A stretch of DNA of 64,000 bases from a virus. Every line of letters begins with the position of its first letter. Positions within the stretch are counted from its first letter, which is position 1. Below are positions 18,603-25,800 of this stretch, one piece after another. The notes beneath the pieces were generated by a model. The model saw nothing but the letters and a program-made list of their open reading frames with translations, did no database searches and was not told the origin of the DNA. The translations under genes were made by a program, and so were the position numbers. The stretch spans positions 19,541-83,540 of IMG/VR virus record IMGVR_UViG_3300032288_004617. One strand, written 5' to 3'.

Positions 18603-18852
18603 CTAATTTCAATATTGCGTTTTTAATAACTTGTTCTCTTATAAGTTTAATCTCTTCTTGATCTAAATAACAAATATTATTGCAAACAAATCTTTCCAAT
18701 CTTAACATCTCTCTCATCCTATCTAAACTAATCCCACATCCATAGTCAAATTTGATTTTCATCATTTGCTCCATAGATGTAGACTTGATGTACTTTGAAA
18801 GTACCTCATTTGTTGGTCTATTATTTGAATTGGTTACGTTTTGACTGCTCAC
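18592..18852 (-). CDS. Hypothetical protein (possible tail hub-related)
   Basis: ORF overlapping neighbours in the operon. Confidence 0.45.
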   Translation of the reverse strand: MSSQNVTNSNNRPTNEVLSKYIKSTSMEQMMKIKFDYGCGISLDRMREMLRLERFVCNNICYLDQEEIKLIREQVIKNAILKLDEL

Positions 18853-19072
18853 TATCTAGGTAGTTTGTTATTAACATTATCTGTTCTTGTGTCGGGCATA
18901 CGTCTTTAATATTGCTTATCAAAGAGTCTATCTCGTCAATTAATTCTTTATACTCAATCTTCTTTTCAGGAATCTTCACTGTATTGTAAAGAGTCACCGT
19001 TCTATTTCTAAGTAACCTTAGTGTATTAGAATTACCTCCACAAAGACCTCCTGTATTATTGCAAGAACACAT
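18821..19072 (-). CDS. Hypothetical protein
   Basis: ORF coupled to neighbours. Confidence 0.5.
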   Translation of the reverse strand: MCSCNNTGGLCGGNSNTLRLLRNRTVTLYNTVKIPEKKIEYKELIDEIDSLISNIKDVCPTQEQIMLITNYLDSEQSKRNQFK

Positions 19073-19073
19073 A

Positions 19074-19598
19074 CTAATGACACGTTTTACAATTTTTCAA
19101 CTTGTCTACTTTTTTTAAGACCTGTTGGAATATCATTGATGCTTCACTTTCTAGATTCTCTCTTACATGAGCTTCAGCTCCTCGTAATAAATATTCAATC
19201 TCTGTTAACTTATCTAAGATTAACTTTCTACTAGGATTTGTAAAACTGTCGATGTATATTCTGTCTAATTCAGACTGTACTTGATCCGTTTTTAAAAACC
19301 TAACTTCCTTATTAAAAGTACTAGGTGATCCTATAACTTTAATAATATAAATACCATCCGGAAGTGTCAATAGCTCTGAAGAGCTGCAATCAACACAACC
19401 AAGACTAAAAGAATTAGAGTTAAAAATATTTAACTTATTCTTATCAAAAAACTTTGTGAAAGGTTCAGAATATCCTGGAAGTGTAATTTCAATAATAGAA
19501 GGTCTATTCTCCAATAACTCCCAAAAAGAGAAATCAAATATCTTTAAATAATATAAATCACTTTTTATATCAAAATCTATATTTACGGCTTGACTCAT
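19074..19598 (-). CDS. Putative tail hub/fibre-attachment protein
   Basis: IEITLPGY and LPDGIYIIK motifs typical of crAss-like hub proteins. Confidence 0.55.
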   Translation of the reverse strand: MSQAVNIDFDIKSDLYYLKIFDFSFWELLENRPSIIEITLPGYSEPFTKFFDKNKLNIFNSNSFSLGCVDCSSSELLTLPDGIYIIKVIGSPSTFNKEVRFLKTDQVQSELDRIYIDSFTNPSRKLILDKLTEIEYLLRGAEAHVRENLESEASMIFQQVLKKVDKLKNCKTCH

Positions 19599-19602
19599 TA
19601 TA

Positions 19603-19634
19603 CAAATTTAGTTGTTAAGTTTTGGTTAAACAAA
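19603..19634 (-). promoter_or_regulatory. Bacteroidota primary-sigma promoter (-33/-7)
   Basis: TTTG-N20-TAAATTTG, then 4 nt to ATG. Confidence 0.75.
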
Positions 19635-19658
19635 AGTATTGAAAATTTTGATATTTAG

Positions 19659-20246
19659 TTAGAATTCATTTAGTAAACAATAACTTACTGATCGTTGGTC
19701 TTTTAATTGAGCTACCCACTTTAAATGTTCTTGCTTATCATTTAACACTTGACATCCCATACTCCATTCTCCAATAAAAACTTTTTTTGATGTAGTTTTT
19801 GGATCATAGCTATTAGAGTGGAAATTTATTCCGTACAATCCATCTGTAGGGTTTCCGATTTCCTCAGATTTTCCATCTTTATCTCCATCTCTATAAACAG
19901 AAATAGGACCAACTTGAACTAATGCCGGCATTTTCCCATTGTGCAAACCATACCTCCAAACACCATAGTACCACTTATCAGCTTTCACTACAGCAGAACC
20001 TAATTTGTTATACTTAATGAATCCTCCTTTTAAGCCTGGAGTACCAGGATTAGTTGTTCCTGTTGTAACACTTAAGAATTTTTGATCCTTATCAAATAAA
20101 TAAAACTTATCATCATAGACATTTTCAGCATCTTCTTTACTTCTTATTCCTATAATAAAGTCTTCTTTTGGAAAACCCTTAAATCCTTGAACAGCTTTTG
20201 CTCTTTCTAAAATTTCTTTGTCTGTGTAATTTCTTACGTTGTTCAT
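19659..20246 (-). CDS. Putative endolysin (L,D-transpeptidase/YkuD-like His-Cys catalytic motif)
   Basis: GINFH...IGEWSMGCQV; adjacent to spanin/holin-like genes. Confidence 0.6.
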   Translation of the reverse strand: MNNVRNYTDKEILERAKAVQGFKGFPKEDFIIGIRSKEDAENVYDDKFYLFDKDQKFLSVTTGTTNPGTPGLKGGFIKYNKLGSAVVKADKWYYGVWRYGLHNGKMPALVQVGPISVYRDGDKDGKSEEIGNPTDGLYGINFHSNSYDPKTTSKKVFIGEWSMGCQVLNDKQEHLKWVAQLKDQRSVSYCLLNEF

Positions 20247-20797
20247 ACTAATAGTTTTTTTATAAATGTTATTAATTTTCCTATATGACTAACTAATATT
20301 CCAAGTATTAATCCTATTAAAAAATAGTTAATTTTTCTATTTGATTTTTTAGTAGTCCTTGAGTCTGCTCTCAACTCAACTCTTTTTGTTTTATTTTTTT
20401 GTTTTATTTCAGCAACTTTTACTTTAGTACCTTCCTTAACAATTTTTGTAATTGTTTTGTATTTCAATCTTATCTCTTGTCTTGTTTGAGGTGGAGTTAT
20501 ATATGTATTATCAACCGGAAACTCAATCTTTATTGACTTTAAATACCAATACAAATTTGTCTTCGGCCCTTCATGTTTGACACTAATATATACAAAATTA
20601 TTCTCAACCATAGTATCACCATAAAAATATACATTACCTGTATCAGAAATAGTTTTAACTATTGTATCTCTATGTGTACTTACAATTGTTGGATCTAATT
20701 TTATAGCCCTTTTTAAATGTCTATTTGCTCTCTCCGTTGTTGAACAAGATATTGTTGATAGTAAAATTAAACAGATTGCTATTATTTGGTTTTTCAC
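20243..20797 (-). CDS. Putative unimolecular spanin
   Basis: Lipoprotein signal MKNQIIAICLILLSTIS-C and a C-terminal TM helix YFLIGLILGILVSHIG. Confidence 0.65.
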   Translation of the reverse strand: MKNQIIAICLILLSTISCSTTERANRHLKRAIKLDPTIVSTHRDTIVKTISDTGNVYFYGDTMVENNFVYISVKHEGPKTNLYWYLKSIKIEFPVDNTYITPPQTRQEIRLKYKTITKIVKEGTKVKVAEIKQKNKTKRVELRADSRTTKKSNRKINYFLIGLILGILVSHIGKLITFIKKLLV

Positions 20798-20807
20798 TTT
20801 TATCAGT

Positions 20808-21044
20808 TTATTTCATTGTTATTCTATTTCCAATTGCATCAGAAATCTTAGTGCTAACTGCTGTGCCCATAAATACTAAAAATACTTCAAAGTTAAATCC
20901 TTTTAAAATAAAATGTATTGTAGCAGCAATAGTTGCAAATAGATAAGATGTGAACATTGTCAATGAAGTTCTACTCCATCTCATTCTTCCATCTTCAGCT
21001 TTTTTCTTTAATGTGTCGTTAACTATATCTCTTACTATACTCAT
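20808..21044 (-). CDS. Small 2-TM holin-like protein
   Basis: 78 aa with two hydrophobic helices and charged termini; RWSRTSL. Confidence 0.6.
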   Translation of the reverse strand: MSIVRDIVNDTLKKKAEDGRMRWSRTSLTMFTSYLFATIAATIHFILKGFNFEVFLVFMGTAVSTKISDAIGNRITMK

Positions 21045-21046
21045 AT

Positions 21047-21970
21047 CTATTTCAAGGTATTCAAGTAAAATGCTCTCATTAAATCTTTATTAATCTTTGT
21101 AGAAGTTTCACCATCTTTTAACATGTTTTCCATGTTCTTATCTGAAGCATCATCTATCTTACCACTTGACATAGATATTATAGATTTACATCTAATATAT
21201 GTCCCTAACCTTCTTCCTAAAAGGTTTGGTAATAATGCATATAAATTTGTTAACGTATAATCTGTTAATTGAGATCCTTCTGCAAGTAATATATCCACAG
21301 TTGGTTCAGCCCAAGAAATCATCCCACCGTCTAATGTCTTATTACTTATTACAGACTTCTTTTCCCCTGTTGAGAAAGAAATTATATTAATCTTCTCATA
21401 ACCTTCTTTTAAGCATTCAAGTAAGGCCATCATAGATGCATTGTTTACATACATCCCTCCATCAATATACTTATCTCCTCTTATCTCAATAGGCTTGAAA
21501 AAAGACTGTGCAGAAGCACTACTTCTTATAACCTCAAATAATGTGTAATTATCCTCATCGTTCTGCTTTGCCTTTGATGACTTAAATAACTTACCTTCCT
21601 TTTTAGATATATTATAAGCTGGTATTAATATTTCAGTTTTGCAATCCTTTAAAGTAAGATTTTTAGTATAATCTAATATAACCTTATTAAAATATTTATC
21701 GTCATATTTTGGCCTTAGGTATCCAAATCTAAGTATATTTTTGTCAAATATATTCTCCCCATGTATAGTGTACAAATCTAGAATATCCTCTGTAGAATAT
21801 CCTACAGAAAGTAGCACTGCTATTATGGCTCCCGTTGAAGTTCCTGTTATTAAGTCGAAATGATCTTTAATAGGTTTTTTTATAATCTTCTCAAATTCGA
21901 CAAGTTGTACTAAAGCTGTAAGACCTCTAATACCCCCTCCATCTATTTCTAATACATTAGCTATTTTCAT
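21047..21970 (-). CDS. Patatin-like phospholipase
   Basis: Intact DGGGIRG, GTSTG (catalytic Ser), SASA and DGG (catalytic Asp). Confidence 0.92.
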   Translation of the reverse strand: MKIANVLEIDGGGIRGLTALVQLVEFEKIIKKPIKDHFDLITGTSTGAIIAVLLSVGYSTEDILDLYTIHGENIFDKNILRFGYLRPKYDDKYFNKVILDYTKNLTLKDCKTEILIPAYNISKKEGKLFKSSKAKQNDEDNYTLFEVIRSSASAQSFFKPIEIRGDKYIDGGMYVNNASMMALLECLKEGYEKINIISFSTGEKKSVISNKTLDGGMISWAEPTVDILLAEGSQLTDYTLTNLYALLPNLLGRRLGTYIRCKSIISMSSGKIDDASDKNMENMLKDGETSTKINKDLMRAFYLNTLK

Positions 21971-22580
21971 CTGGTGTCATTTTTTTTATTAAAGCTTGTA
22001 GCCCAAATTTATTTTTTAATAGCTTTACTAGAGGTTGTGGTAATATCCCTATCTCCCCACAGTTTTCCAAAAGTGAAGTTAAATACACACCATAAAAACC
22101 TGCCATCGTAATTGAAGGTAAGAAGAAGAATAAAGTACTTCCTTTTGAAATCCACCAACTAATTGATAATATAAAAGATGTTGCTACAAAATATATTGGC
22201 ATTCTCCAAAATCTATAAGAATTAAATACTCCGACTTTCATAGACTTAAAAACTCCTGTTATCCAATCTGCACCCATCAACGCCCATAAAGTATACACTG
22301 CACTTGATGTGTCCCACATATATCCTGTTATAAAAGATGTTAGAGCTCCTACAAAAGCAATTAAAGAATTAGTAGACCAGTGTTTAAACCTAAACAAAGA
22401 TGCTAAGAAATCAGACATCGATTCAAACCCTAAAAAAGATCTATTATTAGAACTCGGTCCATTTCCTGCATAACTTGTTAAACTATACAATTGAGACTTT
22501 ATGGAGATTATTAAATTTTTCAAAATAAGATTTCTGTAATTAATAAAACACGAAATTAATAATCTAACTTTAATTATCAA
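21957..22580 (-). CDS. Holin-like multi-TM protein; true start probably downstream of the track start
   Basis: LMGADWITGV and SLLENCGEIG motifs of phage holin_4-type proteins; several TM helices. Confidence 0.7.
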   Translation of the reverse strand: MIIKVRLLISCFINYRNLILKNLIISIKSQLYSLTSYAGNGPSSNNRSFLGFESMSDFLASLFRFKHWSTNSLIAFVGALTSFITGYMWDTSSAVYTLWALMGADWITGVFKSMKVGVFNSYRFWRMPIYFVATSFILSISWWISKGSTLFFFLPSITMAGFYGVYLTSLLENCGEIGILPQPLVKLLKNKFGLQALIKKMTPDENS

Positions 22581-22597
22581 AAATGATAGACTTTTTT
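22551..22597 (-). promoter_or_regulatory. Putative promoter of the lysis cassette
   Basis: AAAAGTCTATCATT-TTTG-N19-TAATTTCG. Confidence 0.5.
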
Positions 22598-22609
22598 AGG
22601 ACTAAAAAT

Positions 22610-22858
22610 CTACAGAAAATAGTTTACTGCTATCTCAGGATAATAAGTTTGCAAAAATTCAAACATTCCCGATTTATGTAGTATAATTTCATTTGCCAAA
22701 GTTTCCTCAATAGTGCTAATAATACTACACTCATCACCAAATAAAATTAAATCTTTTAAAGCGATATTAGTAGGTGCTAACTCATAATATAGAGTCCCAT
22801 CACCATTATCTGTAAATCTTCTTGTTTCAATTAAAAATTGTTCCATATTAAAATTCAT
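22610..22858 (-). CDS. Small acidic protein (possible fibre chaperone)
   Basis: Overlaps the end of the long fibre gene. Confidence 0.5.
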   Translation of the reverse strand: MNFNMEQFLIETRRFTDNGDGTLYYELAPTNIALKDLILFGDECSIISTIEETLANEIILHKSGMFEFLQTYYPEIAVNYFL

Positions 22859-25800
22859 ATGCTACTAAATGAGACCATTGGTTTATTGTTGCTAATGCTG
22901 TTACACCATTTGTTCTAAGACACTGTACCCCTAATAAAGTGTCAATACCTGGTAGATCTGTTGTCAGCGTTCCTTGTGCTGTAGCACCTGTAGTACGATT
23001 AGTTATTCTATACTTTACTGTGGATGTGCCTGGTTCGTTATACATATCAAATATGTAAAATGCTGTTAAAGCAGCTCCTGCTGTTCTATTAGCAGGGAAG
23101 TTAACTCCTAGATCAATTTTAGAAGCTGTACCTACACCATCATTATAAAACACTTGTAAATTAGTATCTGCTGCATCTGAACCAACTCCTATAAAGTTAA
23201 TTAATGATGAATTGTCTACAGTATTTGACAGAGTACCTAATGTTGTAATAGGTAAGAAACCGTGAAACTGTTTAGCTCCTGCAACATATGCTGCATCTTG
23301 AATACACCAACCTACAGAGAAAAAGAAACCTTGACCTACTGAATGTCTTAATGAAGCCGTTCTAATACCTGCTTTTGCCCCTACCGTAGATGTAGTAGGA
23401 ACTTGTAGTCTTATTGTTCTATTTATAGTAGATCCTGTTGATATTGATATAGCTGCAGCAGTTCCAGAAACAGTAGCGGCAGAAACGTTACCCATAACAG
23501 TCATAGTAGCAGAACCATTATTTGCATGGTATCCTGAAGGATAATTACTAGGTGGCAATGCTGGAATAAATAATGGGGCAGCACTATTAAAATTAACCCA
23601 GTCTGTAGAACTCAGATAGCCATTTTGAGTAGCACTCGCAACTTGTTGAGATATATTTACTCCACTGCCTATTACTGATCCTGTACCCCCTGTTACAGAT
23701 ATACCATCTGTTCCTACATCTGTAAAGTCACCTATAGTAAGAGCATCTTGTTTACCGTTCCAAGTACTTTTTTCAGTATCTGTAACAAAACGATAAGATG
23801 CTGATTGTGTAATATTTGCTGGATCAGATGTGTCTAAATTAGCAACGTTTGATAAACCTACATCACTTTTAGTCAATTGTTTATTCTTCCATAAAGAAGT
23901 AGCAAAATCATAATAGATAATGTCATTGTTTGCTAATGTTCCAGTGTCAATTTTAACGTTGTGTATTTCATTTAACTCAAAACCATTCTGTACCTTAACA
24001 AATATTTCCCCATTAGTTGCACTTTTTCTAGTTATAATACCTATAAATACCAAATGATCTGGAGCTACAGGTTTATTAATTAAACCAAAAATTAAATCTC
24101 CATTAACCCCCAACCATACAGGATCACCTTCATTACCACTATTAGTATTTAAACCAGCAAGCAATCCTTCTGTAACTACAATACCTTGGTCATTTAATAT
24201 ACCAGTTGCTGTAACTAATCCCATTGTTTTAGAGGAAGTTGCTTCAGAAGTATTACTTGCTTTTGAAACAATCATGTTAGTCCCATTAGCACTTGTTACA
24301 TAAACTGCTTGGCCTTTTGTAATAGCTTCACCATATTTAACAATATGAGAAACAGTAGATGCAGATGTTGGTAATGTAGCTAAAGTTCCATCACCTCTGA
24401 TATATTCAGCTGTTGTACCAGCACCAACCACTGCAATATCCCCACTAGATGTAATTGGACTATTTGAAACAGTGAATGCACTTGGCATTGTTAAGCCTAC
24501 AGAAGTTACTCCACCTGTTGGCAATGCACTTATATTACCATTTAGTTTTCCTATTGCACCAAGAATACTATCTGATGCAGATAAAGTTCCTGCTGCTGAA
24601 ACATATCCTGTTAGAGGAGCGGAAATTGCTCTTGCATCTGTAAAATAAAGATTTGTCCCTTCAGTTAAATTTGTCGTACTTACAGATCTAGTAAGTTGTC
24701 CAGTGGTAGTTGCTCCGATAACACCAGACGCTGCCCCTGTTAAATTATTAACAGTAACTTCTCCTGATGATGCTATACCTATTCTTGTAAGATTATTAGT
24801 ACGTATATTTAAACTAAACGCATCTGTCAGTCCTATAATTGTATCTGCTCCATATGCATTACCACCTTTTTTAAACCAGTCAGCTGGAGAAATACTATTT
24901 AAAGTAGTTATATTACTTATCGCATGAGTGTTCATATTAAGTGTAGCAGCCATAGGTTTGCTACCATCTAACATTAAAAACTGAGTGTGCCCTGCATCTC
25001 CTGTTGTTAAATTAGATAAAGATAAGTGATCTGAACTTGCAGAAGTTCCACCAGATCTAAAACCAACTACAGGTCTTTGGTCAATTATTTCTGTTATATT
25101 AGTTGCACCAAATGTGACAATAATACCTGCAATTAATGTAACTGCATCTTTAATAAATGTTGGAGGTATAGGTATTACACCTGTTTCTGCAGCACTCAAA
25201 GATGCGAAAGTTGTTTGTCCATAAACAACATAGTATTTTTCATGACCAGTTCCTCCTACAACATATACAGAATGTTTTGCATATTGACCTGCTGTTAAAG
25301 CTGTAAGTGTACCTGCATTATCCCATGATAAAGGTATTGTTTGAGTTGCGGTTTGTATTACACCATTTAATGTTGGTACAAATGTTATATTAGTTCCTCC
25401 TACCGGACTAAATACATTTGATGCATAATAATAAATACCACTATTGACATTTAAATGAAAAGGTGTTACATTTTCTGTCACCTGAGAACCTGATGCATAT
25501 ATAGGCCCCATCGCACTTCTAAACAGATTATCAAATCTATTTGATGTATGCTCAGCATGTGCAGGGACTTCATCTAACAGTTCAATACCTGTTCCATTTG
25601 TAACAACTCTACCTAATAATATATTATTGATTGTATCAGGTTGAGATCCATTACTTGTTAATGCACCTGTAGTGTCAAAGTAAATATATCTATCTTGGTT
25701 TGCTGAAAGTGTTATTGATGTACTACTCCAATCTTTTCTTAATACAACATCTGTAACAGGTAGTTCATAATAACCATATCCTGAACTAATATTAACAGTA

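Follow-up and report, generated by a model that had tools for sequence, protein, structure and literature searches.

A patatin-like phospholipase in the slot between holin and endolysin of a crAss-like phage lysis module, and its probable accessory role in lysis

The 64,000-nucleotide stretch of viral DNA analysed here (hereafter the window; positions 19,541 to 83,540 of the IMG/VR record IMGVR_UViG_3300032288_004617) carries five close-packed minus-strand genes at 19659-22523, which encode in order a holin, a patatin-like phospholipase, a membrane protein of 78 aa, a predicted lipoprotein bearing a C-terminal transmembrane (TM) helix, and a predicted peptidase with a YkuD fold. Judging from sequence comparisons, we think it probable that the patatin serves as an accessory lysis phospholipase in the lysis module of a crAss-like phage. 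The gene order, the coupling of the genes and the intact catalytic residues are observed directly, as is the slot of the patatin, which is conserved in relatives across swapped endolysins. For the activity of the patatin, its timing, its target membrane and its effect on lysis, we infer the following course. The patatin would be made in the cytoplasm along with the holin, to which its translation appears to be coupled, and it bears no recognisable export signal. Once the holin permeabilises the inner membrane, the patatin would most likely reach its substrate in the manner of an endolysin, and would then hydrolyse glycerophospholipids of the inner membrane, of the outer membrane's inner leaflet or of both. 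Such lipid hydrolysis could speed up or complete the breakdown of the envelope by the candidate endolysin of YkuD type and the candidate lipoprotein spanin. If so, membrane-lipid digestion may be an extra step in host bursting by these phages.

The order and coordinates of the five genes had been proposed from the letters and the open reading frames (ORFs) alone (hereafter the sequence-only reading), and both were borne out by our ORF reading. The holin gene (21957..22523, minus strand, as for all five) is followed by the patatin gene (21047..21970; 307 aa), whose ATG is reached 14 nt before the holin gene ends, confirming the overlap claimed for this pair. A gap of 2 nt separates the patatin ORF from that of the small membrane protein (20808..21044; 78 aa), and a gap of 10 nt separates the latter from the gene of a candidate unimolecular spanin (20243..20797; 184 aa). 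This gene is joined through an ATGA overlap to the gene of the endolysin candidate (19659..20246; 195 aa). The next gene, 60 nt further on, matches a PHROG annotated as ‘virion structural protein’, while the region upstream of the holin holds an 82-aa ORF and then a 1737-aa tail-fibre-like gene. Assignment of the holin rests on Pfam PF05105, Phage_holin_4_1 (E 7.8e-10, 39.3 bits against a cut-off of 22.2), and on PHROG 199, ‘holin’.

The patatin matches Pfam PF01734 (E 1.5e-22, 81.1 bits against a cut-off of 27.7) as well as PHROG 25573, a family of unknown function. Patatins are defined by a GGGx[K/R]G oxyanion loop, a GxSxG elbow and a DG[A/G] motif that holds the catalytic Asp, in the definition given in the available text of PMC12480259. 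All of these motifs are present (loop G11-G12-G13-I-R15-G16, elbow G43-T-S45-T-G47, and D170-G-G172), and positions G11-13, G43, S45, G47, D170 and G172 are invariant across an alignment of 29 homologues with 28-82% identity. At the level of sequence, the catalytic Ser45/Asp170 dyad and the GGGxRG loop are intact, as the sequence-only reading had maintained. It had also found no signal peptide; the AlphaFold model (predicted local distance difference test score, pLDDT, 92.1) agrees with this, since the predicted N-terminus runs directly into strand 1 (residues 3-9) and leaves no evident signal peptide. A protein search returned about 66 close patatin clusters at ≥39% identity. Longer (fused) patatin forms were absent from the close clade, the 15 such matches all lying at ≤33% identity. 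Profile scans reached more distant sequences: among the matches listed, those from metagenomes were relatives of ≤38% identity only, and those from genomes were relatives of ≤37% identity with no prophage copy of the close clade.

Comparison of the genomic context of close patatins in IMG/VR members places the gene in a consistent position. In all four closer relatives (L003-L006), the patatin start overlaps the stop of a preceding small membrane-protein gene, and in three of the four this gene is of the holin family. Unrelated proteins upstream of the patatin end alike (…DENS) because their stop is overlapped by the patatin start. The contig of L003 (78% patatin identity) runs through a holin recognised by an in-house holin model, the patatin and a homologue of the 78-aa protein before it ends. 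In L004 (61%), a PF05105 holin, the patatin, a 78-aa homologue and the lipoprotein are followed by a 216-aa GH19-like protein (21.3 bits, below the Pfam cut-off). L005 (59%) shows the order lipoprotein, PF05105 holin, patatin and Phage_lysozyme (GH24, E 4.1e-23), and L006 (58%) the order lipoprotein, single-TM coiled-coil protein, 107-aa TM protein without a family, patatin and a PG_binding_1 plus GH19-like enzyme. The wall enzyme thus varies by locus, being YkuD-like in the window, GH19-like in L004 and L006 and a Phage_lysozyme in L005, and a lipoprotein bearing a C-terminal TM helix is found again in L004-L006. That the patatin keeps its slot while the endolysins are exchanged speaks for its belonging to the lysis module. 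A more distant locus on the same side of the patatin tree (L026, 32% identity) carries tail-fibre-like genes, a PF05105 holin (E 3.9e-11), the patatin and a 198-aa protein that looks CHAP-like by eye and has no Pfam match. This comparative context, with the slot kept in 4/4 relatives and a holin in L026, supports the earlier suggestion of phospholipase-assisted lysis, of which the lysis role itself stands as a prediction.

The wall enzyme of the window was compared with known structures. In VIA-align, the top 20 chains matched by the 195-aa protein are all of the YkuD fold (Pgp2, Csd6, Ldt, Bd1075 and DpaA; Z 9.4-5.5), with the next row at Z 3.7, and the top matches are L,D-transpeptidases or carboxypeptidases. 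Foldseek likewise gives Pgp2 as the best match (E 3.4e-3) to a model with a pLDDT of 85.6. Within the family, H143 and the S162-x-G164-C165 motif are invariant, so that the His/Cys peptidoglycan enzyme of the sequence-only reading finds backing as a predicted peptidase with a YkuD fold. The PHROG matches of the protein are to PHROG 3000, a family of unknown function, and at lower strength to PHROG 33083, ‘endolysin’ (E 2.5e-8), and it has no Pfam match; a protein search at E ≤ 0.001 found 310 relatives, none of them with a Pfam domain. At least 530 stretches in IMG/VR carry the family, and 80 loci (L245-L324, 51-65% identity) were used to examine its context. A small TM protein is encoded directly upstream of the family gene in 58 of the 79 loci with enough flank, as expected of an endolysin. 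This upstream partner is usually 60-76 aa long with 2-3 TM segments. From the modelled fold, we take the 195-aa protein as a candidate endolysin with predicted L,D-peptidase activity, and its relatives look like a very common, unnamed family of phage endolysins.

Links between patatins and lysis genes also appear beyond the close clade. Of 59 de-duplicated viral loci, 14 have a lysis-type neighbour no more than 3 genes away from the patatin, and four of these 14 are of the type found in phage WO of Wolbachia. The same lysis seeds gave no case in 147 patatin loci from bacterial genomes and metagenomes, a contrast biased by the building of the seed models from the viral set. Five loci (L012, L053, L057, L061 and L072) represent three or more further lineages of the patatin tree. 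By Pfam, L012 has a Phage_lysozyme at +2 (E 7.8e-40), L057 a GH19 enzyme at +1 (27.4 bits), L072 a PG_binding_1 plus GH19 protein at −3 on the other strand, and L053 a weak YkuD match only. L061 carries a Phage_lysozyme at −2 (E 2.3e-41) and a homologue of the window's YkuD-like lysin at −1. One could read these cases jointly, with phospholipid hydrolysis forming a distinct and recurrent functional class of lysis protein in phages of Gram-negative hosts. The patatin would then build up in the cytoplasm alongside the holin and either set the holin clock, through erosion of the inner membrane and collapse of the proton-motive force, or cross the inner membrane where the holin has opened it and attack the outer membrane at the inner leaflet until it dissolves, alongside or without spanins, and the lineages (this clade, L012, L053/L057, L061/L072 and WO) would be independent recruitments. 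We regard so broad a reading as rather unlikely. At L072:2217-3986, with the same architecture in L033, a 589-aa GAF-PAS-histidine-kinase gene lies directly upstream of the patatin, which hints at a signal-controlled use of the lipase.

Several points weigh against a role of the patatin in lysis. The cassette already has its holin as well as candidates for endolysin and spanin, leaving no missing function for the patatin to supply. Accessory genes are known to land in lysis regions. A phospholipase that is constitutively active in the cytoplasm could kill the host too early, and no control mechanism is visible. None of the 80 IMG/VR loci of the 195-aa endolysin family carries a patatin within 4 kb, from which it follows that the patatin is optional and that lysis with this enzyme does not depend on it. 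When the 109 genes directly flanking 55 distant viral patatins were put through a blind family scan, 2 holins and 2 cyclases turned up, most neighbours being regulators or unknowns; the lysis link is therefore lineage-specific and no general trait of phage patatins. Finally, the genes in the relatives were called with a crude in-house ORF picker.

One alternative is that the patatin is a ‘moron’ riding in the lysis region, that is, an effector of superinfection exclusion, abortive infection or inter-phage competition, or an auxiliary gene for lipid remodelling, with no part in lysis. The optional nature of the patatin fits such a passenger, as do its full-length match to the PADLOC model of CBASS (an antiphage signaling system based on cyclic oligonucleotides) effector phospholipases (209.3 bits) and the mixed surroundings of distant phage patatins, which include regulators, methylases and histidine kinases. 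As to patatin-holin synteny, which the sequence-only reading had named as a check, the slot behind a small membrane-protein gene is kept in 4/4 closer relatives, with a holin in three of them, and the distant viral patatins show these mixed contexts. Against the passenger stands the start/stop overlap, which is kept in 4/4 closer relatives though the endolysin and even the membrane protein have been exchanged; a random passenger would not be expected to stay between holin and endolysin while its neighbours are reshuffled in this way. Adjacency to lysins in at least three further patatin lineages argues in the same direction, and we consider the passenger explanation unlikely.

The cassette can also be followed in contigs from elsewhere. 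Contigs from two other freshwater/lake studies match 18800-22599 with 37 and 57 differences and 0 gaps, and hold the whole cassette intact. These near-identical lake contigs (~99% over the cassette) diverge at 22599: one of them has a different stretch of 400 nt in place of the 356 nt after 22599, as does a 1,462-nt contig from a third run, while the second long lake contig stops in unlike sequence after this position. The divergence falls in the intergenic spacer upstream of the holin (22524..22609), and the cassette therefore behaves as one module with its boundary upstream of the holin. The interval 22599-22956 marks a recombination boundary, the replaced part comprising the 82-aa ORF and the 3′ end of the tail-fibre gene. 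Within the patatin gene, 5/5 of the listed differences between the window and the lake contigs lie at third codon positions (counted in 40 of 246 differences). At the other end of the cassette, 80 loci anchored on the downstream 174-aa structural gene (25-44% identity over the best segment) contained no patatin, holin or lysin by the seed models; being negative for all seeds, these loci are uninformative on gain or loss of the patatin.

The sequence-only reading had offered, as a second possibility, a defence-type effector domesticated as a lysis timer. In its explicit form, the patatin would be a CapV-type, cyclic-nucleotide-gated phospholipase taken from CBASS, serving as a switchable lysis trigger or exploiting the CBASS signal of the host. 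The likeness to CapV is real in outline: a single-domain patatin fold with GGGxRG, GxSxG and DGG motifs, cytoplasmic and without a signal peptide, which would attack the inner membrane from inside. The PADLOC model PDLC00758 matches the patatin over its full length with E 2.2e-62, as does the NCBIfam model NF041079, CBASS_lipase, at 182.1 bits, and the best matches of the sequence profile in the PDB are the CapV-type 9wn0/9kh6 (9wn0 at 209.5 bits). On the other side, the NCBIfam score falls below the 200-bit equivalog cut-off, and plant patatin (184.6 bits) scores about as well against the profile as AbCapV (181.1), the patatin phospholipase activated by cyclic GMP-AMP for which the available text of PMC12480259 gives the structures 8zr9 and 9jeh. 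Foldseek does not separate the two types either, as it superposes the patatin model on 9kh6 and 8zr9 (CapV-type) and on 1oxw (plant patatin) alike, with E 4e-21 to 1e-19 and TM-scores of 0.83-0.88 (0.84-0.86 for the CapV-type structures); CapE superposes less well than either type. In tblastn against annotated plasmid CapVs, mostly the N-terminal 60-76% of the patatin is covered (93% in two rows), compared with 95-97% in five rows annotated as patatin-like only. The cyclic-dinucleotide binding residues of AbCapV are F147, K149, D159, E207 and R279. Near the expected CapV ligand site, the window's patatin has by eye an F-x-K motif, which does not discriminate because the plant patatin has it too, and its C-terminal part is divergent from CapV. 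The CapV of an Acinetobacter baumannii plasmid resembles the 9wn0 type, with a numbering unlike that of AbCapV.

Gene neighbourhood and phylogeny set the window's patatin further apart from CBASS effectors. No SMODS/DncV-like or PADLOC cyclase was found by PADLOC and Pfam among 73 ORFs of a record that is about 55% complete. Cyclase-linked patatins were marked by clustering of the neighbours of 224 patatin loci. Pfam identifies the largest of these neighbour clusters as DncV-like/SMODS; it spans 34 loci, and its members mostly lie immediately downstream of the patatin. With the resulting cyclase model, a cyclase lies within 3 genes of the patatin in 36 of the 224 loci (5/77 viral, 19/74 metagenome and 12/73 genome loci). 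In an unrooted FastTree phylogeny of 99 rows, all 18 cyclase-adjacent patatins fall on one side of a branch and the window's clade lies elsewhere, and in an unrooted IQ-TREE phylogeny of 61 rows (quick search, mixture model), all 13 form a clan without the window's clade, with a value of 99 in the Shimodaira–Hasegawa-like approximate likelihood ratio test (SH-aLRT). Rows for both trees were chosen by hand, the FastTree set taking 70 of 107 representatives at 55% identity. The window's clade consists of 18 close sequences plus L026, L007, L008 and L052, with a branch support of 93 in IQ-TREE and 94 in FastTree. On these grounds (score below the equivalog cut-off, no cyclase in the 73 ORFs, position outside the cyclase-linked clan) we rejected the patatin as a CBASS CapV, and the phylogeny against CapV speaks in both trees against the idea of a domesticated defence effector, which we now consider very improbable.

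Set beside known systems, the cassette shows the canonical layout with additions. The canonical lysis cassette of phages of Gram-negative bacteria consists of holin, endolysin and spanin, and phage T1 gp11 is a unimolecular spanin. The window shares with it the holin, a predicted soluble wall enzyme without a signal, a putative lipoprotein with a C-terminal TM helix, and the arrangement in one tight late unit. It differs in that a phospholipase and an extra small membrane protein separate the holin from the spanin candidate, and in that the endolysin is a predicted YkuD-fold His/Cys peptidase without a Pfam family. For the phospholipase, a working analogy may be found in mycobacteriophage LysB, a lipid esterase of the lysis cassette with a cutinase-like fold that detaches the mycolic-acid outer membrane. 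Both would be lipid-ester hydrolases in a lysis cassette that add a step against an outer lipid layer. LysB has, however, another fold, another substrate and another host envelope, and shows no sequence relation to the window's patatin.

The closest precedent is phage WO, for which a ‘patatin-based lytic cassette’ has been proposed, explicitly as a hypothesis in the available text (Bordenstein & Bordenstein 2022, PMC9203015; PMC5062602). Our literature search on patatin or phospholipase in phage lysis found this as the only such proposal. In phage WO, the patatin adjoins a small holin-like membrane protein near tail genes and has a proposed role in lysis, as set out in the available text of PMC9203015. 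The same adjacency is found in the window, where the holin lies directly upstream of the patatin and overlaps it, with the tail-fibre-like gene further upstream. WO patatins are also the main named matches in the phage collection (6/8 records, 26-28% identity). The available text of PMC9203015 describes WO as lacking a canonical holin, endolysin and spanin, the patatin, whose partner there is an ankyrin protein, being proposed as a substitute for the lysin; a WO-type locus in our set (L025) carries such an ankyrin protein. The window's cassette, in contrast, has no ankyrin, its patatin is added to what looks like a full set of holin, endolysin and spanin-type proteins, and the WO patatins fall in another lineage of the tree. 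At L006:3326-3694 and L052:2533-2937, the patatin has as a neighbour a small protein that combines a single N-terminal TM segment with a long coiled coil, an architecture which the WO paper calls ‘holin-like’.

As far as the available texts on WO go, a lipid-hydrolysing member of the lysis scheme in Gram-negative hosts has so far been proposed on genomic grounds only, for that phage, standing in for a missing lysin. New here is an intact patatin that occupies the slot between holin and endolysin in phages that appear to have all three canonical parts, and does so through exchanges of the endolysin. This makes concrete the question of how digestion of membrane lipids affects the timing and completeness of lysis and the release of progeny. 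The cassette also points to the unnamed and very common YkuD-fold endolysin family, and it shows lysis genes of crAss-like environmental phages, for which we found no description in a literature search that was aimed at patatin and lysis and not at crAss lysis generally.

The surroundings of the cassette raise another alternative, in which the patatin would do its work once lysis is over, or extracellularly, digesting receptor-bearing debris and vesicles so that progeny are not trapped, or aiding entry as a virion-carried enzyme. The cassette does lie between the 1737-aa tail-fibre-like gene and the gene for a PHROG ‘virion structural protein’. At L008:300-4846, the start of a patatin with 38% identity overlaps the last 4 nt of a 1235-aa tail-module gene, which is probably a tape measure, and this patatin thus sits in a structural-module context; one of the 109 neighbours of distant patatins, at a locus not named in the scan, matched Pfam PhageMin_Tail. 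The holin, spanin candidate and endolysin share the same embedding, however, which means that a position among structural genes says little. The patatin bears no virion-targeting or export signal, and the record has a separate tail lysozyme (PF18013). We hold this alternative to be quite improbable, and an accessory role in lysis continues to be the reading we prefer.

Of the two remaining cassette proteins, the 184-aa product has an apparent N-terminal lipoprotein signal with Cys18 and a C-terminal TM helix. The residues S17-C18-S19 and the F-x-x-G...G pattern of the C-terminal helix are invariant in 4/4 homologues (window, L004, L005 and L006), which agrees with the description in the sequence-only reading of a lipoprotein with a C-terminal TM segment. 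No match was found for it among Pfam, PHROGs, PADLOC and NCBIfam models, and its architecture suggests a candidate unimolecular spanin. The 78-aa protein had been labelled a holin with two TM segments. Hydropathy shows one long or two short hydrophobic segments, and searches against Pfam, PHROGs, PADLOC and NCBIfam gave nothing above noise; the label thus holds as far as a small membrane protein is concerned and does not extend to its identity as a holin. Homologues follow the patatin directly in L003 (86%) and L004 (44%) only. Possible roles for the 78-aa protein are those of an additional holin, an antiholin or a membrane partner. In the ESM Atlas, the neighbours of both the 78-aa and the 184-aa protein are viral hypothetical clusters only.

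The source record is 83,540 bp long and includes the window as a part. The G+C content is 28-35%, and there are no tRNAs. A Pfam scan of the 73 ORFs in the record gave single-ORF matches to CrAss_Ring_1, CrAss_Ring_2, RecA, PhoH, thymidylate synthase and the tail lysozyme, as aggregated results in which the ORFs behind the two CrAss_Ring matches are not named; given these two matches, we classify this uncultured freshwater phage as crAss-like. Its host is probably a freshwater member of the Bacteroidota. A blastn nucleotide search against the phage collection returned no match.

Upstream of the cassette, the sequence-only reading had placed an own promoter at 22551-22597, which our scan does not support. 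A sigma-70 scan has no site there and gives 18 sites in the region against 24.9 expected from shuffles, a scan whose consensus may not be that of the host. No minus-strand terminator was found in 18800-23200, and both spacers have weak, AT-rich inverted repeats. The longest ORF of the holin spans 21957-22580, with alternative in-frame starts at TTG 22523 (188 aa) and ATG 22418 (153 aa). The TTG at 22523, giving the 188-aa form, is the likely start, since L003 conserves the N-terminal extension at the protein level. The hydropathy of the holin has 2 peaks, and 3-4 hydrophobic stretches can be made out by eye. As L003 also keeps the 35 residues between TTG 22523 and ATG 22418, two products of different length, in the style of holin and antiholin, are conceivable.

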